Notes: generated from the sequence alone by a model not told the origin. A stretch of DNA of 24,000 nt from Candidatus Geoarchaeota archaeon (GCA_015520395.1 WAQG01000021.1:16637-40636); one strand, 5' to 3'; positions 7,317 through 24,000 are shown, counted from the stretch's first letter. Numbers and translations are program-made.

Positions 7317-7820
7317 ATGAGTGGTATGAGTAGGAAGAGCCTTTTAATAGCCGAGACTGCGATGTTCGCAGTTACCTACATAGTCCTAGTGCTGGCCTTC
7401 CACTCCCTAAGCTTCTACTACATCCAGGTAAGAATTGCTGACGCCCTCCTGCCCCTAAGCATGGTCTATGGATGGACGGCGATAGCAGGCCTCACGATAG
7501 GTTGTGCAATAGCCAACCTCTATAGCCCAGTTCCACAGCCCATGCTAGACGTCCTCTTAGGAAGCCTTACCAACCTGATATCAACCTACCTGGCCTACAA
7601 AGTGGGAAGAAACGGCGTATTACGTATACTACTTGGCAGCATACTTGAAGCGATTGTGGTAACGGTCATTGTAGGAAGCTACTTATCCGTGCTATTCAAC
7701 GTCCCATTGGAAGCAGCATATGCAGGAGTCGGGCTTGGATCCTTCATAAGCATAGTAGTTATAGGGGCTCCACTGGCGGCAACGCTATCAAAATACGTGC
7801 GTATAAGTGCTAGAGAATGA
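7317..7820 (+). CDS. queT: QueT-family membrane protein (putative 7-deazaguanine precursor transporter)
   Basis: 167 aa, about 5 TM helices. The N-terminal pattern AMFAVTYIVLVLAFHSLSFYYIQVRIADALLPL resembles the recalled QueT signature (...aP.sfG.iQfRisEaL..l). The call rests on memory of the family only. Confidence 0.55.
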   Translation: MSGMSRKSLLIAETAMFAVTYIVLVLAFHSLSFYYIQVRIADALLPLSMVYGWTAIAGLTIGCAIANLYSPVPQPMLDVLLGSLTNLISTYLAYKVGRNGVLRILLGSILEAIVVTVIVGSYLSVLFNVPLEAAYAGVGLGSFISIVVIGAPLAATLSKYVRISARE

Positions 7821-8646
7821 CGGGTTTAAGGGGGGAGAAGGTTATCGATCTGTATTGTAGTATTACAGCTTCACCGTTAGCCCTGGCAGCCTCCTCCAAG
7901 GCGCTTAGGCCTAGAGACAGCTTCTCACCCTCCTCGCAAGCAGCAGCCTCTATCTTCCCATTCTTAAGAAGGAACTTAAACCTAGGGCCGTCAGCAAAAC
8001 TGATCACCATGAATATGTAACTTCCACGTGCCTCCCCATTTAGCTCATCAGTAAATTTAAGCACCGTGGGAAGGAGATCTCCCTGGTTGATCCAGACCCT
8101 CCGCTCATTTATCAGGTTCATGCTCATCATTAACCTGGCGCTACTAGTAATATCAGCAAACATCCTGCTCTTGTCGTTGATCACATCAGCAACCAGGTGT
8201 TCTATGAGGGATTTGACCGGAACAACCCTCTTGATCATAAACCTATTCTCTAGGTAGGTCTTAACCGATGTAACCATGTCATCAGCCAGCTTTGCCGCCA
8301 TTTTCCGTCCCAAGCCCTCATTCCTTATGTTAGATTCCACGGAAATTCTTGTGCCCGTCCCCGTATTCTGGAGCCTGATAGTTATAATTGCATCTATAGA
8401 GCCTATGGTTAGGTAGGCGACCTGCCAGAAGGGTATGCCCATCACGACTATCTCGAACTTAATTACCTTCCTTAACCCGAACCGTCGAACCAGTATCTCT
8501 ACAGTATATTGTCCCTCCTCTTTTTTCTCTATTTTTGAGAATAGATCAACTCCGCGGAAAACTTCATCCAACTCAAAGAGGGCATTGTATACATCCTTAA
8601 CATATATGCCCGGTAACTCCATCTCAACGCTCTGGACCGTTATCAT
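7810..8646 (-). CDS. hypothetical two-domain protein: N-terminal SRPBCC/CoxG-like domain plus an uncharacterised C-terminal domain (possibly DUF4388-like)
   Basis: The track ORF starts at TTG 8649 and the next codon is ATG (8646). A TATA-like box at 8671-8679 lies about 27 nt upstream, so I prefer ATG 8646 as a leaderless start. The N-terminal half has an alternating beta pattern ending in LGRKMAAKLADDMVTSVKTYLENRF, as in CoxG/SRPBCC proteins. The C-terminal RFKFLLKNGKIEAAACEEGEKLSLGLSALEEAARANGEAV resembles the DUF4388 'iyf.nGki..A......G.eAl' pattern. Confidence 0.6.
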   Translation of the reverse strand: MITVQSVEMELPGIYVKDVYNALFELDEVFRGVDLFSKIEKKEEGQYTVEILVRRFGLRKVIKFEIVVMGIPFWQVAYLTIGSIDAIITIRLQNTGTGTRISVESNIRNEGLGRKMAAKLADDMVTSVKTYLENRFMIKRVVPVKSLIEHLVADVINDKSRMFADITSSARLMMSMNLINERRVWINQGDLLPTVLKFTDELNGEARGSYIFMVISFADGPRFKFLLKNGKIEAAACEEGEKLSLGLSALEEAARANGEAVILQYRSITFSPLKPVIL

Positions 8647-8670
8647 CAATCTATCTTAAACGAGATAGGG

Positions 8671-8679
8671 TATATAGAG
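8671..8679 (-). promoter_or_regulatory. TATA-like box (minus strand CTCTATATA) for the 7810-8646 gene
   Basis: The AT-rich element is centred about 27 nt upstream of ATG 8646 on the minus strand. Confidence 0.35.
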
Positions 8680-8783
8680 ATTTCGTTCAATGCAAATGCC
8701 ATGATCATAAATGTCAAAGTTTGCTCGACAGCATCATATAATCTTATCACAACCACAAGTATTTACATAAATTAAATAAAATA

Positions 8784-11700
8784 TTATTCGATAGATTTTA
8801 TCTCATTATACAGTTCATTTATAAGCTCTATGTAACTCGCCCTCCCAACCTCAACTTCATACATCTTTCTTTCAAGCAGTCTCGTCCTTTCCTCCGAAAC
8901 GAACTCCTCGTAGTGCTCTATTAGGTACTTGTAGACCATTATGCCGATCTGTGTTGGAATGAGCCTCCGCCTACCCTTAATATATCTTCTCTCAATGAGC
9001 TTGCTAACTATCTTGGCGTAGGTTGATGGCCTCCCTATCCCCCTGTCCCTCATCAACTGAATAACCTCCCCTTGGGTGTATGGGTAAATCTTTGGCAGGG
9101 CCCTCAGCAGCTCAGCTTCCAGGACTTTGATCGGCCCCTCCCCGACAGCCCCGTAGGTCCTTAAAGGCTGAATAACGGTGTAACCCGGCTTAACCACCTC
9201 TACCGGCACTTCCACCGAAGCCGACCCGAAGTCGGCGCTGACAGTATAACTCTGGATCTTGACGAGTGCTGGCACCATCTGGCTGGCCATGAACCTCCTG
9301 AAAATCATGTCGTAGAGATTATAGTGCCTCTGTGTCAGGGGCTTCACCGTCCTTATGGCGCCCATCGAGATCAGCTGCCTCAGCCTAAGGGCGTCGATGG
9401 GCTTCGTAGGCCTTATACATTCGTGGGCCCCACCCTCACCCCAGCTCCTCCCCCTATAGTACTCCTCGCCAAAATGCTCAGTTATGTACTCCCTGGCCAG
9501 GGCTATCCCTGTGGCGGAAACCCTTGTGGAATCGGTCCTATGGTATGTTATTAGGCCTAGCTCGAACAGATCCTGGGCGAGCCTCATGGCCTCGCTGGCC
9601 CCAAACCCGTGGATCGCTGAGGCATCCCTGAGCATCGAGTCTGTGGTGTATGGGGGTGGGGGCCTAAGTTCGACTACCTTCTCCTTAAGATTCTTGATCA
9701 CAACATGTTTCAGCTCGCCCGGCGACTTCACGGGGCTAGTCAACTCTATGTAGGTGATGAGGCCGTTGGCGAGCTTCATTCTAACGACATCCCGCCTGCT
9801 CTTCTCGGACTCGCTGTGGCGCTGTATCACCCAGCCCAGGACGGGCGTCTGAACCCTGCCAGCTGAGAGGCGCCGATTATTGAATCTTTCCCAGAGGCGC
9901 CTGCTAAGCTCGAAGCCTATCCAGCGATCCTCTATCCTCCTGACTATCTGGGCCTCTACCAGCCTCATATCCACATCCCTAAACTCCCCCAACGCCTTCT
10001 GGAGGGCGGGCTTAGTTACCTCGTGGAACTCTATCCTGACGAGCTTCTTAGAGTAAGGTGCAAGGGAGACGGCGAGGTCCCATCCGATCTTCTCCCCCTC
10101 CACATCTGGATCCGTCCCGATCATCACCAGGTCCACCTCCGATGCCAGCTGCCTTAGAGACCTAATCACTTCGATCGAGTCCCTAATTCTCCTTGACCCA
10201 CACCTCGGGCAGGCGTCGAACTCAACGAACTGCTCCCCACACCTCAGACACCGTTTGATCGTGGTGTATATGGGGATGAAGCCGCCGTCCCTCAGCTCTA
10301 CGCCATGGAATCCCCTTGTTACGGAGAGGTCGTATACGTGGCCACCGCTGGCTATCACGGTTAGGAGGTATTCTCCCGTGCTCACCTCATAGGCGGTGAG
10401 CCTCCCCAGCCTCCTCCTGGAGGGCCTGCCGAAGAACCCGGCTATCGTCCTAGCCTTGTTGGGAGACTCCACTATCAGGAGGGCGCTCTTCACGGGATCC
10501 CGAAGCTCAGCCCTCATCTCACCCCTCATCAGGGCCCTTATCAGCTCCCTATCCCTGTCAACCTCCTCCAGTATCCTATCGAGGTCGGCCTCATCTATGC
10601 CAACCCAGGTATACTCGCCGATGAACCACTCAAGCTGCCTAGCTAGGCCTGCAAAGACCTTCTCGTCGTCGACGAGGACTATGGAGAGGCCCTTCGAGAT
10701 GCCGCCTGCAAAGAGCCTCGACGTCCTTCCCGAGGCCTGGATGTAGGTCATCGTGTCGGGAACTATCAGCTTGAGCTCGCCGTCCACCCGCCTAAGGGAT
10801 ATGTACCTGCTCTCCGAGATCCTGCTCAGAACCTCCTCCCTTGAAAGGGCGCTTCTAAGCAGGTTAACGGCGTCAAGGAAGGTTCTCAGGGCTGCCGAGA
10901 GATGTGGGGGCGCCTCGATCTCCCCAAGCATAGCCTTGTGTATCTCCCTCAGCGCCTGGGTGGGTAGCCTGTTTATATAGTTCCTCATCTTTACAAGCAG
11001 CCTCTCCCCCTTCTCCCTCTCAGCCTCGTCCAGGTACTCCAGGAGCGTCGCCATGAGCTGCGCCGCCCTGACGGGATGGACATCCTTCAGCTCCAGGTCG
11101 AAGCGGAACTTGGGCACGCCGGCAAACACGGCGTACCTTATCCTGTGGGGCAGGTCGATCCCCCTAACTATAAGGCCATAATATGTTGCGACCCCCACCA
11201 GGACATCTATCTCCCCCTCCGAAAACCTGTCCAGAACATCCCTCCGCACACCAGCCCTAACCTGGACGGCCTTCACACCAGAGTTAACGAGGGCCTCCAC
11301 AATCTTCTTCGCAAACTCGGATCCCTTGTCCAGTGGGACGAAGATGAGGCCGCCTGGCCCTAGCCTCTTAACGAGCCTCACGACCTCCCTCACTGGCTCG
11401 TCGATCTCCGTAACATAGACGTCCACGACATTCCTAAGGAGCTCCGAGGTCGACCCAACCTCGAATCCAAGGAGCTCCCTGAAGACCTTGACCCTCAGGC
11501 CCCTGGGCCTACCGGTAGCGCTGGATATTATCAGCTGCCCATGTTTTAGGCCGCGCTTAAGCTTCCTCAAAGACCTCTCCAACTCCCTAAGCTTCAGCCT
11601 GAGCTCTCTGACCTCCTCGGCGGCGCCGCGGTATGGTTGGAGGTAGGCGAGCCTGACCTTAACCTTGACGATCTCATAGGCCGTTTCTATGGCTTCTTCA

Positions 11701-12490: not shown

Positions 12491-12913
12491 TCAAGCCACA
12501 CCCCTAGCGACACTTCTCCTGGTTTTCCCAGGGTGATCATCCCTCAGCCTCCATAGGCCATCCCTGATGTCTAGGAGCATTATTCCGAGCTCTCCAGCCA
12601 CATAGTCGCTTAACAGAACCTCATCGACGTGGGGATTCACTATCAGGTTGACCGTGATCGGCTTTGTCTCCCTATCCTCCAGGAGTATCCTCAGCGTTCC
12701 GGCTGAAGGGTAGTAGGGCGTGGCCACCTCACCACCGCCCGTGTCGAGCAGGGCTGTTAGGGATCCTCTGGGCGGCCATAGACCAAGCTCCCTGGCAAGC
12801 TCGATGGGGATGACGATGTCAGGGCCATCAGCCTCAAACCCACTATTCACTAAAGCCACAGCCACAACCGACTTCTCACCAACGTCCACCTTAACCCTGA
12901 TCCTACACGCCAT
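12491..12913 (-). CDS. retropepsin-like (clan AA aspartic peptidase fold) protein with Asn at the catalytic Asp position
   Basis: 140 aa. AVALVNSGFEADGPDIVIPIELARELGL aligns by eye with the archaeal retropepsin-like pattern (flvDTGf.g.l.lp..lA.eLgL). The C-terminal LLSDYVAGELGIMLLDIRDGLWRL matches 'llG.d.L..lg..iD...g.l'. The codon at the D position is AAT (Asn). Confidence 0.55.
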   Translation of the reverse strand: MACRIRVKVDVGEKSVVAVALVNSGFEADGPDIVIPIELARELGLWPPRGSLTALLDTGGGEVATPYYPSAGTLRILLEDRETKPITVNLIVNPHVDEVLLSDYVAGELGIMLLDIRDGLWRLRDDHPGKTRRSVARGVA

Positions 12914-14072: not shown

Positions 14073-14150
14073 GACCCATATAGCTGCCTGAAGACGTCCA
14101 GGCGGTGGCCAGCACGGTTGTCGGGCCTGGTTGAAGGTTTTGGGAGCTGG

Positions 14151-14180
14151 ATATTTATCCTGTCTCACATATATATTATT
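14151..14180 (+). promoter_or_regulatory. two AT-rich TATA-like boxes (ATATTTAT at 14151-14158; ATATATATTATT at 14169-14180) upstream of the NurA-like gene
   Basis: These are the only AT-rich elements in the GC-rich 3' part of the intergenic region. The first is centred about 36 nt upstream of ATG 14191, which would give a leader of about 10 nt. Confidence 0.35.
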
Positions 14181-14190
14181 GGGTTGCGTA

Positions 14191-16110
14191 ATGGCTACTG
14201 CCTGGGAGCTTGAAAGGCTTAGGAGGGATGTGAGGGAGCTTTTGGCCGAGTTTGAGGGTGATGTGAGGAGGGTTCGGGAGGAGTATGGCAACCTTGTGGG
14301 GCTCCTCAGGATGACCAGCGAGGAGGGCGCCTTAGATGCGCTGGCCAGGTTTCTTGGGGGCGACGGCGAGTACCCGATGGTCGGCATAGACGGTTCGATG
14401 GCCGTTGAGGAGAGGCTTGAAATACTGATCTTCCACGTGTCCGCAATAGCGTATACAAACACCGTAATCATCGATAACCGCAACGTATCTGTGGGGAGGC
14501 CTGAGCCTGATATTGGGGCCTTCGTCTCGGCGAGCATACCCCTCTGGAGCGACCTCCTGGCCGAGGTTGACTCGTCGCTGGGCGTGAACGTCTCCACGGA
14601 GCAGGAGTTTGAGAGGGGGGTTACGGCAATCCCATTCTCACTCATGACGTTTGCTGAGCTCTACCTGGCCCACCAGTTAGTCGAGGGTGGTGCCAGGATA
14701 GTTTTCCTCGACCGGCTCCTAACCGTGACGAGGGGCCCTGCGAGCCGGGATCTAAGTGAGATGATGAGGGCTGGTTATACGTCGTTTGAGGGGGTTGACC
14801 TGGGGCAGGGCAGACTCACGCTTTTAGACCTTGTTATGGCGGCCCGACTGGGCAGGGCGCCCGACATAGCCGCAGGGATGGCCGACCCAGAAGAGTCGAG
14901 AACCGGGTTTTTGAAGACCCTATCCGAGATAATCCCGCCCAGGCCGCCCTACACCCCGTATTTCCTGCTGGGCGCCCTCGTGAAGCTAGACTACCTCGAC
15001 TATGGCGAGATCGCCTCAATGATGGTTAGACGCTTCTTTGAGGATAGGGCTGTGAGCGAGGATGAGCTTAGAGAGGTTTTCTATAGGGGTAGGAAGCCCA
15101 GATCCACCCACTGCCGATACCTTCTAAGAAGGCTTCGGAAACTCTCGGATCTCCACATGAGGCTAACAGGCTCCCTCCTGCTCCACTTCGACGCCGGGGG
15201 CGTGTACCTCGTGGATAACTCGGTCAAGAATTACTGGAGGCGGGCGTGGGGGCTGGTTAAGGGCTTTGCGGAGAGGGTATTCTCGGGGTCGGGAGAGGGA
15301 CACACGCTCAGGCTGGGGTCTAGGTGGGCTTCAAGGCAGGACTTCAGCGCCCTCATCCTAATACTCCTCAACAGGCTTGTCGAGGACTCGGTTTCCAGGA
15401 GGGTGCTCCTAATCGGCATAGCTAAGGACACCTTGTCAACGGAGCTGCTCAGAGGATTCATACCGTACGTGCAGAACGTGGGGCCTCCCCTCCTCCTGGG
15501 AAGTGATCGGAAGTTTCTAACCCTGCTGAGCTCGGTATTTAGCAGTGAGGTTAGGACGCCATGGAGAACCAGAGAGTTCGACTCGGCGTTCTCCCTGATA
15601 GGCTGGATGGATGGCGGATACAGGGCGGTTAGGGGGACGGTGATAAGGGAGAGGAGGTTTGTGAGGGGGTATTTCCAGCTATGGTCGGCTCCAAACGACC
15701 CGGCCCTCCGAAGCCCGGTCTTCGCCTACGACAGGCCCTTCTACCCCGAGTTCGACTCAGAATTCCTGAGGGACCTGCAGGTCAGGGTTGAGCGCTTCCG
15801 GGGAGAAGTCCTGATCAAGCCCTTCGCCGAAGATAGCAAGGGGTCAAGCCTCGTCGGAGATGCTGTTCTCGGGGCCCTGCTGATCGCCCACAACCCCAAT
15901 GTCATTGAGAGCCTTGGGCACAACTACCTCCTCTTCCTCGCCGACAAGCATGTGAAGCACCTGAGCAGGAGGGCTAGGGGCTCCATAATGGGTGTGGCGG
16001 ATCTCGAGATAATGCCGATCTCCAGAAAGTATAAGGCTTTCTTCATATCTAGGAGGTTTAGGGATATTAGGAGGTTGGCTGAGCATGGCAGGGAGAGGGG
16101 GGCCACCTAG
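14191..16110 (+). CDS. NurA-like nuclease, enlarged (639 aa from ATG 14191; 659 aa if TTG 14131 is used)
   Basis: Ordered blocks resemble the conserved NurA (PF09376, RNase H-like fold) motifs: MVGIDGS (Asp codon at 14389-14391), FAELY, IVFLDRLL, LLIGIAKDTLS, RGYFQLW and GHNYLLFLADKHVK. I prefer ATG 14191 because the TATA-like boxes lie downstream of TTG 14131, and the extra 20 aa are hydrophobic and not NurA-like. Confidence 0.7.
   Translation: MATAWELERLRRDVRELLAEFEGDVRRVREEYGNLVGLLRMTSEEGALDALARFLGGDGEYPMVGIDGSMAVEERLEILIFHVSAIAYTNTVIIDNRNVSVGRPEPDIGAFVSASIPLWSDLLAEVDSSLGVNVSTEQEFERGVTAIPFSLMTFAELYLAHQLVEGGARIVFLDRLLTVTRGPASRDLSEMMRAGYTSFEGVDLGQGRLTLLDLVMAARLGRAPDIAAGMADPEESRTGFLKTLSEIIPPRPPYTPYFLLGALVKLDYLDYGEIASMMVRRFFEDRAVSEDELREVFYRGRKPRSTHCRYLLRRLRKLSDLHMRLTGSLLLHFDAGGVYLVDNSVKNYWRRAWGLVKGFAERVFSGSGEGHTLRLGSRWASRQDFSALILILLNRLVEDSVSRRVLLIGIAKDTLSTELLRGFIPYVQNVGPPLLLGSDRKFLTLLSSVFSSEVRTPWRTREFDSAFSLIGWMDGGYRAVRGTVIRERRFVRGYFQLWSAPNDPALRSPVFAYDRPFYPEFDSEFLRDLQVRVERFRGEVLIKPFAEDSKGSSLVGDAVLGALLIAHNPNVIESLGHNYLLFLADKHVKHLSRRARGSIMGVADLEIMPISRKYKAFFISRRFRDIRRLAEHGRERGAT
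16069..16075 (+). promoter_or_regulatory. Shine-Dalgarno-like AGGAGGT inside the 3' end of the NurA-like gene, serving the HerA-like start
   Basis: GGAGGT sits 9 nt upstream of ATG 16085. The two ORFs overlap by 26 nt (16085-16110), consistent with translational coupling. Confidence 0.45.
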
Positions 16111-17875
16111 GTTCGCCCACGACCTTAACGGCAGGTTCAACTGTAGACTCAGGGAGTTCCGCACCCAGACCAGGAGCTACAGGGGGGCTGGGAGGGAGGA
16201 GCTGCAGGTAACCAGCAAGGTTGCCATATTTGAGGCCGACTTCGATTTTAAGGTTCTTGAAGCACTTGAAAGGCAGTCCTTCCTCGTCTCTAAGAGGAGG
16301 GGATCCGGCGGCGATATTTACATGGTTTATGAGGTGGCCTATGTCAAGCCCACCCACTATGAGAGCGCGCCGAGGGAGACCGGGCTTCCAAGAACCCTCA
16401 GAGTGGATTTCCTCAGGCGTATAGATGAGAGCTGGGGCGCGCCGGAGGGCTGGCTCGAAAACTGGATAGAAATTGGTGCGGTTTATACTGGTTACGTGGT
16501 AGTTGATGAGGACGGGAATTATCGTTATGAATGGAGGCCAGGTGCAGTCCCCCTCATAGGATCTGAGACCTACATACTCTCAGAGGAGGCTGTAACTAGA
16601 CTGGTCTCAGCACCCAGGGGCACTGCACTATTCACCCTTAAGGATGCTGATGTCAAAGTATCGCTCGACATGGAAGCCCTCGTCAAATACCATGCTGGCG
16701 TCTTCGGCTTTACAGGTGGGGGCAAGTCTAACTTAACTGCATTCATGGTTCGAAAGCTTCTAGAGGAGCTTAAGGATCTTAAGGTGATTATTGTAGATGT
16801 TGCGGGAGAATATGCAATATACCTAGCAGACCTTATCAGCGAAATCGGCATCATATATACGACTGAGAATTTCAACGCATCTGAAAATCCAGCCGAGGCC
16901 TTCCTAGCCTCACAAGCCATACCTGAAACATTAATTCCGCTCTTAGGCGGGGTTGAGCCGCTAAAGGCGTTTGCAAGAAACCTCCTTGAGGATGGTTTAG
17001 TGAATATCGTGAACCTTTCTCCAAAACCCACTGAATATTCGCTGAAGGAGGTGCTCTCATACATATTGGGGGAGAGCAGGGCCAAGGCTGCTCAGATCAT
17101 AATGGAAATCGGTGGCATCCTGGAAAAACATGGTGTGTCTATGGAGGTTCTCATTAGGGAGATGAATGATGATCTAAGGAGGGAGTTGATAGAGTATCTT
17201 GAGGGGGTTAAAGGCGAGCTGGAGGGGAAGCGATACCCGCCGGAAAAGCTAATCGAGGCTGTTACATATGCCCTCGAGTGCCTGAGGCTCGGGGAGGGCG
17301 GGGAGAGGAGAGGCGTAGACACGCCTGAGGATATCGCTGAGGCCATTCTCAGGGAGGATGATGGGCGGAGGCTTGTGATCATATACACCCCCGACCCGGT
17401 TGATGCCAGGATAACTGTTAGCAGACTCATAGAGGCTATGTTCAAGATCAGGAAGAGGTCCATAGGTGGGCCTAGGGTTCTCGTAGTCTTAGACGAAGCT
17501 CAGGAATTCATACCGGATAGGGCTAGGAAAGAGGATCTCACCGACATCTCGAATAGATCGGTTGAAAGGCTTCTTAGACAGGGAAGGAAGTATAGGCTTC
17601 ACTGCTGGATAGCAACCCAAAGACTCGCCCATCTAAACACAAACGCCCTCCAACAGATACACACATACTTTGTTAACGTCCTTCCGAGAACCTACGACAG
17701 AGGTGTCGTGGCCAATGCAGTTGGAGTAAGCCCCGAGATAGTGGATAGAACTGCGGATCTTGAAGCTGGCGAATGGCTCCTCGTTTCTCACAAAGCCCTA
17801 GCTAGAAGAGGCGTAGCTGTCTTTGTAAAGGCCCCCAATAACGAGGAGATACTGGCGGAAAAACTCCTCAAGTAA
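16085..17875 (+). CDS. HerA/FtsK-class (DUF87-type) P-loop ATPase, putative hexameric DNA translocase/helicase
   Basis: 596 aa. Walker A is HAGVFGFTGGGKSNLTAF (16706-16729). Walker B is PRVLVVLDEAQEFIP (core at 17477-17500). The downstream block LRQGRKYRLHCWIATQRLAHLNTNALQQIHTYFV matches the HerA 'eGRK.g..l.l.tQrPs.l...vl.q..t.i' pattern. The N-terminal ~200 aa are beta-rich, as expected for a HAS-barrel region. Confidence 0.85.
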   Translation: MAGRGGPPRFAHDLNGRFNCRLREFRTQTRSYRGAGREELQVTSKVAIFEADFDFKVLEALERQSFLVSKRRGSGGDIYMVYEVAYVKPTHYESAPRETGLPRTLRVDFLRRIDESWGAPEGWLENWIEIGAVYTGYVVVDEDGNYRYEWRPGAVPLIGSETYILSEEAVTRLVSAPRGTALFTLKDADVKVSLDMEALVKYHAGVFGFTGGGKSNLTAFMVRKLLEELKDLKVIIVDVAGEYAIYLADLISEIGIIYTTENFNASENPAEAFLASQAIPETLIPLLGGVEPLKAFARNLLEDGLVNIVNLSPKPTEYSLKEVLSYILGESRAKAAQIIMEIGGILEKHGVSMEVLIREMNDDLRRELIEYLEGVKGELEGKRYPPEKLIEAVTYALECLRLGEGGERRGVDTPEDIAEAILREDDGRRLVIIYTPDPVDARITVSRLIEAMFKIRKRSIGGPRVLVVLDEAQEFIPDRARKEDLTDISNRSVERLLRQGRKYRLHCWIATQRLAHLNTNALQQIHTYFVNVLPRTYDRGVVANAVGVSPEIVDRTADLEAGEWLLVSHKALARRGVAVFVKAPNNEEILAEKLLK

Positions 17876-17900: not shown

Positions 17901-18803
17901 ATGTTGCTCAAGGTCGAGGCCTTTAGAGACCCACGGCTTTGGTACCATCTCATAGAGGGTTGCTTTGGGGGTCTTGAGCGAAGAAGCATCGAGGATCTGG
18001 AACAAGCCATGAACCACCCAAGCTTCATGCCCGAGGGTCTCCTGCTAGCAAAGGTCGATGATAAGCCTGCTGGAATGATATGGGTGAGGCCCCTCCCAAG
18101 TGGGGGGAGGTACGAGCTTCGGGATCTCGCTGTGAGGAGGGAACACTGGGGTAGGGGCGTCGAGGATGCGCTAATAAGATCTGCCATGGGGCTGGTTATG
18201 GAGAGGGGCGGATCCTTCGTTAGGGCGCAAACCCACTCGATCAAATACTACGTGGAGGCCTATAAGAGGCATGGGTTCAAGCCTTCAAGGCGTATATTGA
18301 GGATGGTGTGGGAGGTCGGCAGGATCAGCATCCCCACGCCGCCCAGCCACGTCGAGGTCGCCCCTCTCAGGATGCGTGACATCGAAGAGATAGTCGAGAC
18401 CTTCCTCAAGGCCCTAACCCCATACTGGGATTGGTGGGTCGAGGACTATGGGGGCGTTGAAAGCCTTAGAAGAAAGGCCGCACAATGGTTCAGGTCCTCG
18501 AAAGGCCTGTTCTGGCTAGTTGCCAAGGTTGGGGGTAGGCCCGTAGGGATAACCGGCTTCCGCACCCTGGGACGGACTGCGAACTTCTTCGGAGCATTCA
18601 CACATCCAGACCACAGGTTCAGGGGTGTGGGAAGAGCCCTCATGGCTGAAGTTCTAAGAAGGCTCAGGGAGCTGGGGGTGGAGAGACTCGTGGTTCATAC
18701 GGTCGCCTCACTAGAACACCTGGAGCCAGGCGCGATCCTCTACCTGAAGACCGGCGGCCGAATCGAGGCCGAATACATTCATTTGGAGAAGAGGCTGGCG
18801 TAA
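17901..18803 (+). CDS. tandem-GNAT N-acetyltransferase (two acetyltransferase domains)
   Basis: 300 aa with two acetyl-CoA-binding 'motif A' segments: LAVRREHWGRGVEDALIRSAM and FTHPDHRFRGVGRALMAEVLRRLRELG. It starts 25 nt after the HerA-like stop, on the same strand. Confidence 0.8.
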   Translation: MLLKVEAFRDPRLWYHLIEGCFGGLERRSIEDLEQAMNHPSFMPEGLLLAKVDDKPAGMIWVRPLPSGGRYELRDLAVRREHWGRGVEDALIRSAMGLVMERGGSFVRAQTHSIKYYVEAYKRHGFKPSRRILRMVWEVGRISIPTPPSHVEVAPLRMRDIEEIVETFLKALTPYWDWWVEDYGGVESLRRKAAQWFRSSKGLFWLVAKVGGRPVGITGFRTLGRTANFFGAFTHPDHRFRGVGRALMAEVLRRLRELGVERLVVHTVASLEHLEPGAILYLKTGGRIEAEYIHLEKRLA

Positions 18804-22133: not shown

Positions 22134-23114
22134 GTGGTGAAGAAGCCTGTGATACCACCACAGGTGCCATATGTTAAGAGCCAGATGGATAAGAGGGGGA
22201 ATCCCCTGGGCGCCAGCCCTAAGGAGCTGAGCAGCTGGGCTGAGGGCCTCGATATACCCAGGAGGGGGGAGACGATACTCCACGTGGGCTGCATGTACCC
22301 TATACTCGGAAGGATGGAGGCTCTCTTAGACACGGTGATAAAGCTGGGTGCTGAGAGGGTCACCAAGCTTGGAACGGCGCTGGGCAGGCTTGGCTTCGAC
22401 CGGGTGCTCATGAAGTTCCTGCCTGCGGGGGAGAAGAGTGGGGAGAGGGTGAGGAGGATAGCGGTTGCCCTGAAGTCCCTTGGAATAAACTTCGCATACC
22501 TGGGGCCCGAGGAGCCGTGCTGCGGCGAGGTTCTCTACAACCTGGGTTACCACGACGCTTTCGTCAAGCACGCCAACAGGGTTGCGGAGAAGCTGAGGGA
22601 GCTTGGGGTTAAGAGGATGATAGTCCTCGCCCCCTTCTGCGCCTACGCCCTTAAGAAGGTGTACCCAAAGGTTGTCGACGGCTGGGATATAGAGGTTAAG
22701 ACGCTGGCTGAGGTCTTGGCAGAGGCCCTGAGGGAGAGGGGGCTGAGGCTTGGGAGGAAGCTGAGGGTTACCTACCACGACCCCTGCTACTACGCCAGGT
22801 TCCTGGGCATAGTGGACGAGCCCAGGGAGGCGCTCTACAGGATTAGGGGGGTTGAGCTCATCGAGCCCCGTCACACAGGGCTGAACACGAAGTGTGTTGG
22901 TGATGGCGGTATAGAGCTGACCTACCCTGAGCTGGCCGATGAGGTGGCGGTGATGAGGGTTAGGGAGCTGATAGAGACGGGGGCCAGGGTCATAGTGACG
23001 CAGTGTCCAGCCTGCATACTGATGATTAAGAGGGGCCTTAAGAAGCTGGGTAGGATGGATGTGGAGATCACCGACCTGGGAGAGCTGGTCTACAGGGCCG
23101 TCACTCAAATGTAG
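22134..23114 (+). CDS. CCG-domain (cysteine-rich, HdrB/GlcF C-terminal-type) Fe-S protein corresponding to the C-terminal module of GlcF
   Basis: 326 aa with two cysteine-rich CCG-type repeats: GCMYP...EEPCCGEVL...PFCAYAL and HDPCYYARF...KCVGDGG...TQCPACILM. The GTG start comes 2 nt after the upstream stop, in a different frame. GGTGA at 22122-22126 is 7 nt upstream. Confidence 0.8.
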   Translation: MVKKPVIPPQVPYVKSQMDKRGNPLGASPKELSSWAEGLDIPRRGETILHVGCMYPILGRMEALLDTVIKLGAERVTKLGTALGRLGFDRVLMKFLPAGEKSGERVRRIAVALKSLGINFAYLGPEEPCCGEVLYNLGYHDAFVKHANRVAEKLRELGVKRMIVLAPFCAYALKKVYPKVVDGWDIEVKTLAEVLAEALRERGLRLGRKLRVTYHDPCYYARFLGIVDEPREALYRIRGVELIEPRHTGLNTKCVGDGGIELTYPELADEVAVMRVRELIETGARVIVTQCPACILMIKRGLKKLGRMDVEITDLGELVYRAVTQM

Positions 23115-23127
23115 GTGGGGGTCGGGC

Positions 23128-24000
23128 TTGGACGCCCAGGATGTGCCCCCTGAGATCCCGCTAAAAATAGATAGGGTTGGGGTAAAGGAGGTCAGCAGGA
23201 GGATACTTATAGCGAGCCCCGAGGGGCCACTCAGCTACGACGTGGTTCTGGACGCCTACATAGACCTGCCCCACAACATGAGGGGCATACACATGTCGAG
23301 AAACATAGAAGCGTTCATAGAGGCTATTGAGGAGGCCCGGAAGGGGGAGGCTGCCAGCCTGGAGGAGTTCCTCGAGGTCATCTCCCATAAGCTTCTAGAG
23401 AAACACGGCTATGCAACGAGGGCTGAGGTGAGGCTTCAGACAAAGTACTACTACATGGAGGACTTCATAAACCCTCCCGTCCCCGAGGCAGCCGACGTCG
23501 CGATAACGGTTCTTATGGACAGATCCGGGCGCAGCCGCAGAAGCGTCGCGGTATCGCTTATAGGCGTGACGGCCTGTCCAAGCGCCCAGATAACCTTCAG
23601 CGAACGTGAAGGCATACCTCCGGAGAAGTCTCCAACCCATCTCCAAAGGGCCAGGCTGACGATATGCGTGAAAACGACGGGCAAGAGGATCGCCAGGATA
23701 GAGTGGCTTGTGGAGGCGGCTAGGGACTCATTTTCAGCCCCTGTTGTTAGCTTCTTGAAAAAGCCCGACGAGCATAGGCTTTTGAAAAAAGCCCTGAGAA
23801 GGCCGAGGTTCGTTGAAGACGTAGTAAGGTACGCTCTGGACAAGACATTCAAAACACTAGTAAAAATGGGCTTCCCTGAGGAAACCCTTATAAGGGTGGA
23901 GGTCGAAAGCCTGGAAAGTATCCACCCACATAACGCCTATGCGTCAAGAGAGGCCACAATAGGGGAGCTCAGAGAGGAAACAAGCCTCCAGAACTTTTAA
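23128..24000 (+). CDS. mptA: GTP cyclohydrolase, FolE2/MptA family (archaeal type IV/IB)
   Basis: AQDVPPEIPLKIDRVGVKEVSRRILI...LDAYIDLPHNMRGIHMSRNIEAF matches the recalled FolE2/MptA pattern (vQ....p.....I.rVGv..l..p......v.L....kGtHMSRf.e). The stop TAA is the last three bases of the window. I prefer TTG 23128, just after the upstream stop with AGGTGG at 23113-23118. The track's ATG 23059 would overlap the preceding gene by 56 nt and add a Trp/Ser-rich extension. GTG 23143 is also possible. Confidence 0.75.
   Translation: MDAQDVPPEIPLKIDRVGVKEVSRRILIASPEGPLSYDVVLDAYIDLPHNMRGIHMSRNIEAFIEAIEEARKGEAASLEEFLEVISHKLLEKHGYATRAEVRLQTKYYYMEDFINPPVPEAADVAITVLMDRSGRSRRSVAVSLIGVTACPSAQITFSEREGIPPEKSPTHLQRARLTICVKTTGKRIARIEWLVEAARDSFSAPVVSFLKKPDEHRLLKKALRRPRFVEDVVRYALDKTFKTLVKMGFPEETLIRVEVESLESIHPHNAYASREATIGELREETSLQNF

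Follow-up and report, generated by a model that had tools for sequence, protein, structure and literature searches.

A nuclease gene and an ATPase gene overlap in the Geoarchaeota window

We analysed 24,000 nucleotides (nt) of Candidatus Geoarchaeota archaeon DNA (GCA_015520395.1 WAQG01000021.1:16637-40636), called here the window, in which two overlapping open reading frames (ORFs) on the plus strand encode a long protein of the NurA nuclease family (ORF1) and a HerA-family ATPase (ORF2). NurA-HerA corresponds in archaea to RecBCD and AddAB, the end-resection machines, and is essential in Sulfolobus. To our knowledge, nearly everything understood about it comes from a few proteins of Sulfolobales and Thermococcales. 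A first-pass annotation of the window, made from the sequence alone, had named both proteins and leaned towards a novel defence module. The proteins were rightly identified, whereas their context was over-read. Positions below are counted from the first letter of the window.

14191..16110, plus strand: long NurA-family nuclease gene (ORF1), 639 amino acids (aa), with an ATG start
16085..17875, plus strand: HerA-family hexameric translocase/ATPase gene (ORF2), 596 aa
16085..16110, plus strand: 26-nt overlap of the 3' end of the nuclease gene with the 5' start of the ATPase gene
16069..16075, plus strand: Shine-Dalgarno-like AGGAGGT within the nuclease gene, 9 nt before the HerA ATG at 16085, read directly from the sequence
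14151-14158 and 14170-14177, plus strand: AT-rich TATA-like elements, ATATTTAT and TATATATT respectively, in the divergent intergenic region, also read directly

The maximal reading frame of ORF1 opens with a TTG at 14131. Its likeliest true start is the ATG at 14191, since relatives align with that form from residues 3-10 onwards. Both reading frames, the overlap and the internal Shine-Dalgarno sequence are confirmed as first annotated. The 26-nt overlap suggests that translation of the nuclease and the ATPase is coupled. In most of 62 related loci the two genes overlap by 4 nt or stand a few nucleotides apart, and locus L092 likewise has an overlap of 26 nt. Both TATA-like elements lie within 40 nt upstream of the nuclease ATG, and a generic hexamer scan picked up one of the two. 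They could possibly act as an archaeal promoter with a very short leader or none.

ORF1 is a predicted nuclease with a NurA fold

The alignment-based AlphaFold model of the ORF1 protein (predicted local distance difference test score, pLDDT, 88; predicted template-modelling score, pTM, 0.89) resembles solved NurA structures. Its ten best Foldseek matches in the PDB are all NurA, from Thermococcus kodakarensis, Pyrococcus furiosus and Sulfolobus solfataricus (E 1.4e-7 to 3.7e-5, probability 1.00), and the next match has an E of about 0.1. The target-normalised TM-scores are moderate (0.35-0.62), because the ORF1 protein contains an extra domain. The nuclease is indeed oversized, as had been remarked: it has 639 aa, compared with 319-433 residues in the matched solved chains.

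Profile searches with the same protein give little. The Pfam NurA family (PF09376) scores it at 11.5 bits (E 0.21), below the 21-bit gathering cut-off; weak matches to this family occur in 16 of 40 relatives, and a few pass the cut-off, for example P0094 (25 bits) and P0328 (27.8 bits). There is no match to the ORF1 protein in NCBIfam or PADLOC, and NCBIfam holds no model for any relative either. When the PDB was searched by sequence, with the nuclease alone or with a family profile, nothing meaningful was returned, and only the fold search succeeded. The homology to known families anticipated by the first-pass annotation stands for HerA in both Pfam and the PDB (see below), and for NurA in fold, with a Pfam score below the cut-off. 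The relatives measure about 580-600 aa; most are labelled 'hypothetical', and some bear the NCBI label 'DNA double-strand break repair nuclease NurA'.

An alignment of 40 family sequences has 48 invariant columns. The motifs first quoted for ORF1 (GIDGS, FAELY, VFLDRLL, GIAKDT, RGYFQL and LLFLADKH) are all present, and they are not chance resemblances: they fall on invariant or near-invariant columns, with D67, G68, S69, E156, D174, K412, D413, T414, D585 and K586. Among the putative catalytic positions, D67, E156, D174 and D585 are invariant and H577 is conserved in at least 90% of the sequences. In the model, D67 is placed on strand 1, E156 on a long helix, D174 at the end of strand 4, and H577 and D585 at the start of the long C-terminal helix. 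Mapped by order and by structural element, without residue-level superposition, these positions parallel the catalytic residues D51, E105, D126 and H411 of P. furiosus NurA, the last of which is the fourth metal ligand (PMC3300031).

The protein is divided as follows:

14362..14718, plus strand: first half of an RNase H/PIWI-like catalytic core (residues ~58-176), with D67 (GIDGS), E156 (FAELY) and D174 (FLDR)
14719..15402, plus strand: enlarged M-like middle domain of ~228 aa, mostly helical, with a winged-helix-turn-helix module, delimited from profile matches of relatives and from the helix/strand pattern of the model
15403..16107, plus strand: second half of the catalytic core and C-terminal helices, with GIAKDT (K412, D413, T414), H577 and D585/K586 (LADKH)

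Winged-helix families (ArsR, MarR, HTH_24) match relatives at the place equivalent to the middle domain, as in residues 212-251 of P0117 and 231-266 of P0120, and the two halves of the relatives' NurA profile flank the insert. In P. furiosus NurA, this position in the topology is taken by an M domain of 98 aa (PMC3300031). The extra length is a family-wide domain insertion and not a fused effector, and the size of the nuclease loses the value it had been given as a sign of defence.

According to the model, then, ORF1 is a predicted nuclease of NurA fold whose middle domain is enlarged and carries a winged helix. Could it instead be a degenerate NurA-like scaffold, or a winged-helix DNA-binding regulator that partners HerA? 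The sub-threshold Pfam score and the winged-helix module would suit such a protein, but the four catalytic positions, and many residues around them, are invariant or nearly so among very divergent members that share only 33-39% identity with the window protein. This argues for retained catalysis and leaves the non-nuclease alternative hardly credible.

ORF2 is a HerA-type ATPase

The ORF2 protein matches Pfam DUF87 (PF01935, the HerA central domain) with 71.2 bits (1.7e-19; cut-off 23.2). Its model (pLDDT 88) begins with an all-β region, a β-barrel, and the top 50 fold matches in the PDB are all HerA proteins; the best is T. kodakarensis HerA taken from the HerA-NurA complex (2.5e-22). Two nucleotide-binding motifs are located as follows:

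16706..16729, plus strand: Walker A P-loop of HerA, G208-FTGGGK-S215, with G208, F209, T210, G211, G213, K214 and S215 invariant in 36 sequences
17477..17509, plus strand: Walker B region of HerA, VLVVLDEAQEF, with D470, E471, A472 and E474 invariant

All three motifs originally quoted for ORF2 occur in its translation: GFTGGGKSN, VLVVLDEAQEF and RKYRLHCWIATQR. Their key residues, G208, K214, S215, D470 and E471, also lie on conserved columns. Folds, conserved residues and the DUF87 match bear out the naming of a NurA-like nuclease beside a HerA-like ATPase, and we hold this molecular identity of the pair with high confidence.

The first reading had suspected that the pair is no canonical resection orthologue, and the sequences agree. 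The window HerA scores 58 bits against NF040819 (helicase_HerA, cut-off 970) and 33.7 bits against NF040937 (HerA_Thermprot, cut-off 800), that is, 34-58 bits where these resection equivalogs require 800-970. It is also below the cut-offs of the NCBIfam families HerA_antiphage (65 bits, cut-off 800) and HerA_antiphage_2 (37 bits, cut-off 850). Its best PADLOC model is 'HerA, type III co-evolved' (PDLC01055), with 135 bits over two partial stretches. Fold and profile searches against the PDB do not separate a resection-type from a defence-type HerA, because the scores are similar.

Inteins favour conserved sites in essential DNA-metabolism proteins. In five loci from Nitrososphaerales/Thaumarchaeota metagenome-assembled genomes (MAGs), the HerA orthologue is one ORF of ~1,110 aa that contains an intein of ~520 aa exactly in the Walker A P-loop (L035:2465-5797, L044:9205-12525, L048:11769-15125, L057:5598-8933 and L066:6084-9413). 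The junction reads ...GF/S...HN/TGxGKSN..., with slashes at the intein boundaries. The window HerA has no intein. A HerA gene identical to it is carried by NCBI assembly GCA_027017365.1.

The two genes are inherited together

To find relatives we scanned GTDB with the family alignment, taking one genome for each species, and kept the 80 best of 162 loci; an earlier scan of the genome collection by exact peptides of the window nuclease had given no match. An exhaustive profile search of 1.84 billion representatives returned only 299 matches, so the family is compact. Of 83 loci, 2 end at a contig edge; in all 81 that could be assessed, from ~80 species, HerA lies directly downstream of the long NurA. 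The NurA and HerA distance matrices are correlated with r = 0.95, a value reached by 0 of 999 Mantel permutations. Because HerA is always the downstream gene, the two genes overlap or abut, and their distances agree so closely, NurA and HerA are almost certainly co-expressed and form a complex.

Members of the clade are found in Nitrososphaerota (including Nitrosocaldaceae), Bathyarchaeia, Brockarchaeota, Culexarchaeia, Methanomethylicia, Marsarchaeota, Aigarchaeota and unclassified Thermoproteota; the Nitrosocaldaceae members come from MAGs. Carriers include the complete genome OY970211.1 and an 843-kb Culexmicrobium contig, JANZKC010000001.1. They were not found among the viral contigs of IMG/VR or the plasmids of PLSDB. 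In a distance tree the window protein falls within a set of 62 clade members, its closest neighbours being Culexmicrobium and Nitrososphaerota/Bathyarchaeota MAGs from hot environments, and no sequence from the more distant second tier of matches (tier 2, below) is interleaved. The pair is conserved and vertically inherited, and belongs to a distinct long-NurA clade, which current profile libraries annotate poorly.

Two loci stand apart. The NurA-like protein of contig JBAMLO010000036.1 (L053), labelled Nitrososphaera sp. MAG7, is closest to those of Brockarchaeota/Thermoproteota MAGs (62-66% identity), and the contig is probably mis-binned or mislabelled. With Brockarchaeota as the source of its nearest proteins, it was dropped as a probe of ammonia oxidisers. 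The other locus, L091:8001-9908, belongs to an intermediate group and lies on a 371-kb contig. It is a long NurA-like gene without an adjacent HerA, and its neighbours, a Hef/XPF-type helicase-nuclease (DEAD, Helicase_C, ERCC4, HhH) and an HhH-GPD glycosylase, are DNA-repair-flavoured.

No third gene is conserved beside the pair

Among the sizeable ORFs of the window, Pfam finds neither Mre11 (metallophosphoesterase) nor Rad50, as had been noted from the sequence. Neither was found in the ~7.7 kb further upstream on the longer source scaffold of 62.7 kb (~32 kb examined altogether), and a motif screen of the 10 kb on either side of the pair in 83 related loci gave no mre11/rad50-like ORF. This missing linkage had been counted as a sign of defence. 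It is not unusual, since nurA-herA apart from mre11/rad50 is also reported in Candidatus Nitrosocaldus cavascurensis, where nurA (NCAV_1103) lies next to herA (NCAV_1104) and mre11/rad50 (NCAV_1257/1258) are elsewhere (PMC5797428 supplement). The arrangement is that of the window, with genes possibly of another family, this lineage having more than one nurA/herA family; N. cavascurensis itself has two herA genes (PMC5797428).

The other genes that Pfam recognises in the window encode a phosphoenolpyruvate (PEP)-utilising enzyme, GlmS, a sugar nucleotidyltransferase, malate dehydrogenase, PAC2, QueT, reverse gyrase, a GNAT, a flavoprotein disulfide reductase, GlcD/GlcF-like oxidase subunits and FolE2. 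The reverse gyrase points to a hyperthermophilic host. The window holds core genes only, and no cas or CARF gene, CRISPR array, RNA family, notable repeat or mobile-element mark is present in it. A mobile-element origin of the pair was rejected: repeats, an integrase and tRNA-type targets are all missing, and neither plasmids nor viral contigs yielded a member of the family.

The small winged-helix-turn-helix (wHTH) regulator and four-helix membrane protein on one side of the pair, and the GNAT on the other, had been taken as a further hint of defence. All three are absent beside the pair in each of 85 related loci, and a functional tie to them was rejected, the partners not being conserved. 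The GNAT gene itself (17901-18803, plus strand) follows HerA after 25 nt and may share a transcript with the pair; its product has two acetyltransferase domains, seen as two matched stretches. When flanking ORFs of the related loci are clustered, the pair alone is conserved, with no third gene; everything else is local synteny: a thermosome gene, for example, recurs in 24 loci. Conservation of the neighbourhood holds for the adjacency of NurA and HerA and not for the flanking genes, which vary.

A census of the two neighbours on each side in 26 diverse loci covers 84 proteins and 134 Pfam families, none of which recurs more than three times. Nearly all of these neighbours are metabolic or housekeeping. 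PADLOC finds singletons only among the 84 proteins, including one isolated Csx1-like match. The census thus gives no support to the defence module proposed at first.

Defence-linked relatives form a separate sister group

The lower tier of the exhaustive search (tier 2, E 1e-38 to 1e-18) consists of NurA-like proteins of comparable length, found in bacteria (Crocosphaera, Fimbriimonadales) and in Thermoplasmataceae. Their genes are followed by HerA, and both proteins align over their full length with those of the window, at 23-28% identity; a winged-helix match occurs in the tier-2 NurA P0332 as well. At L086 (6001-11284, Fimbriimonadales bacterium), QueD is a neighbour, and a DpdA-like TGT and a DUF6884 protein come after the pair. 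L087 (4985-10954, Thermoplasmataceae archaeon) has HNH, SIR2, a CARF protein, a DpdA/DUF6884 fusion and a D12 methylase: the CARF protein and a SIR2-ORC/CDC6-like protein precede the pair, and the fusion follows it. The neighbours of L088 include PIN and DndB, and those of L090 type I restriction-modification (R-M), AAA_15, UvrD-PD-(D/E)xK and ParE. NurA-HerA modules of the L086/L087 type may be tied to 7-deazaguanine DNA modification or to cyclic-oligonucleotide signalling.

CRISPR-linked HerA/NurA paralogues were described earlier (PMC3973734; PMC6546367), as the type III 'Cas HerA / Cas NurA' (Vestergaard 2014; Shah 2019 clusters 57 and 58); Tagg_0815/0814, VMUT_1471 and Calkr_2542 are examples. 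The pairs of L086-L090 are full-length homologues of the window pair, their proteins are of comparable size, and their genes follow the same order. They share its best PADLOC model as well, but the tier-2 HerAs match that model end to end with 210-293 bits, whereas the window HerA matches it in two pieces. The long NurA of the sister group, like that of the window, has no PADLOC match. A HerA fold is likewise shared with the antiphage systems Sir2-HerA/Nezha, DUF4297-HerA and TdpAB (Foldseek ~1e-18 to 1e-20); in the window, however, its partner is a NurA-fold nuclease and not Sir2, DUF4297 or TdpB.

These relatives bear directly on whether the window pair is an anti-virus or anti-plasmid module, with a HerA motor and a long NurA effector that degrades invading DNA. 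The type III model as best PADLOC match would fit such a module, as would the documented CRISPR-linked paralogues and the genes that adjoin the sister-group pairs (CARF, SIR2, HNH, DpdA-like TGT/DUF6884, DndB, PIN, type I R-M and ParE). Yet these partner genes have 0 matches beside the pair in the window and the 85 clade loci, and the neighbour census carries no defence-island signature. The pair tracks taxonomy, its two proteins co-evolve, and the clade was not found on plasmids or viral contigs. The window, moreover, has neither cas genes nor a CRISPR array, and its long NurA has no PADLOC match. A defence role for the window pair is accordingly quite improbable, and the defence flavour belongs to the distant sister group, not to the window's clade.

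Two window genes recall the 7-deazaguanine pathway: QueT, a queuosine-precursor transporter (7317-7820, plus strand), ~6 kb from the pair, and FolE2, a GTP cyclohydrolase for the first step to 7-deazaguanines (23059-24000, plus strand), ~5 kb from it. A tie to the DpdA-like genes of the sister group was considered and rejected, for neither gene is adjacent to the pair and the window has no TGT or DUF6884 gene. Their presence is most likely coincidental archaeosine/queuosine housekeeping.

Two further ORFs, both on the minus strand, have no family match. The ORF at 12491-12913 (140 aa; searched in Pfam, NCBIfam and PADLOC) sits between the reverse gyrase gene and the small HTH_45 regulator, and its LLDTGGG motif recalls retropepsin-like aspartic proteases. 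The ORF at 7810-8649 (279 aa) adjoins the reverse gyrase gene and lies in the one part of the window whose GC is clearly reduced (0.42 at 8001-9000; other parts have 0.49-0.58).

A probable role in chromosomal DNA-end processing

We consider it probable that the window pair is a NurA-HerA nuclease-translocase complex of a distinct long-NurA clade whose cellular role is chromosomal DNA-end processing (repair, recombination, replication restart) and not antiviral. A housekeeping role is favoured because the clade is widespread in archaea, has no conserved third gene and mostly metabolic neighbours, and was not found on viral contigs or plasmids. The P-loop inteins of several HerA orthologues were counted towards the same role, given the preference of inteins for essential DNA-metabolism proteins. 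Supporting observations are both folds, the catalytic and ATPase residues, the obligatory pairing, the co-evolution and the housekeeping context.

The closest model is the archaeal HerA-NurA end-resection complex of Sulfolobus, Pyrococcus and Thermococcus (PDB 2ygk, 3tal, 4d2i, 9x1l-9x1p), with which the window pair shares both folds, the D-E-D-H arrangement of NurA catalytic residues, the Walker A/B motifs and N-terminal barrel of HerA, and co-expressed genes. It differs in its M domain, of ~228 aa with a winged helix compared with 98 aa in P. furiosus, in the gene order (nurA, then herA), in the lack of mre11/rad50 linkage, and in a HerA that falls far below the NCBIfam equivalog cut-offs.

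Outside archaea, the nurA-herA genes of Deinococcus radiodurans are a stand-alone two-gene unit, not known to be linked to mre11/rad50, and the NurA they encode is short and is not known to have a winged-helix insert. The D. radiodurans pair (PDB 7wrw/7wrx) belongs to a different clade from that of the window; its HerA matches the window HerA by fold at ~1e-16.

By analogy with the known complexes, the hexameric HerA ring would thread double-stranded DNA from an end, driven as an ATPase, and pass it on to NurA, bound to the ring as a dimer. NurA would then cleave the strands at two RNase H-like active sites that depend on metal (D67, E156, D174 and H577/D585). The winged-helix middle domain probably adds contacts to DNA, or between the subunits, at the apex of the NurA dimer. 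We infer the assembly of the complex, the direction and polarity of threading and the part played by the winged helix in this scheme, as we do the cellular role.

Several observations weigh against an ordinary resection role. The nuclease has no sequence match to a NurA of the PDB, even with the family profile; the window HerA is below all NCBIfam cut-offs, and the sequences of both proteins lie a long way from those of canonical resection HerA and NurA. The nearest outgroup, tier 2, sits in defence, DNA-modification or CRISPR-type neighbourhoods in all four informative loci. The clade was not detected in mesophilic ammonia oxidisers, which retain a nurA/herA pair (PMC7554672), and this argues against its being the universal resection pair there. 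Finally, several nurA/herA families coexist with mre11/rad50 in Thaumarchaeota (PMC7554672 Table S3), so that the clade may be a second pair beside the canonical one. Abby et al. 2020 place two nurA and at least three herA families alongside mre11/rad50 in thaumarchaeal ancestors (PMC7554672 Table S3; published families FAM003267/000748, FAM003221/000368 and FAM003565), and report that one nurA/herA pair was lost jointly in the ancestor of Nitrosopumilales/Nitrosotaleales (PMC7554672).

These points lead to a tentative alternative, which we think rather unlikely: a second, specialised NurA-HerA paralogue, chromosomally fixed and coexisting with the canonical resection pair, with another job. 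It might act on a particular DNA structure, in replication-fork or chromosome-segregation work or in DNA uptake, with the winged helix giving target or partner specificity. Consistent with it are the multiple thaumarchaeal families and the joint loss of one pair (PMC7554672), the two herA genes of N. cavascurensis, the distance of the clade from canonical HerA by NCBIfam scores, and its apparent absence from mesophilic ammonia oxidisers that keep a nurA/herA pair. The long NurA of L091, which has no HerA and lies beside a Hef/XPF-type helicase-nuclease and an HhH-GPD glycosylase, is consistent as well. However, the sequence holds no pointer to a specific alternative substrate.

A wider version of this idea, doubtful to the same degree, is that TACK archaea have in this pair a second nuclease-motor system of ancient origin beside the canonical Mre11/Rad50/HerA/NurA, sharing ancestry with the long NurA-HerA pairs of bacteria and Thermoplasmata that are linked to CRISPR and defence islands. 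The clade would then be either a domesticated defence nuclease or the chromosomal ancestor of the mobile versions, and its winged helix would give a target specificity that canonical NurA lacks.

Significance of the long-NurA family

Many uncultured TACK lineages thus carry a different version of NurA-HerA, with a NurA of ~600 aa and a winged-helix-bearing middle domain. Pfam and NCBIfam mostly miss this long NurA, hence its usual annotation as 'hypothetical', and recognising the family corrects both the genome annotations and the repair-pathway inventories of the phyla that carry it. For the window itself, the outcome is mainly the correct identification of an ordinary conserved gene pair, and no new system. 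The homology to pairs linked to defence islands and CRISPR provides a concrete case of the relationship between a repair-type nuclease motor and an immune effector, and the relation of the chromosomal clade to its defence-island sister group is the more interesting thread.

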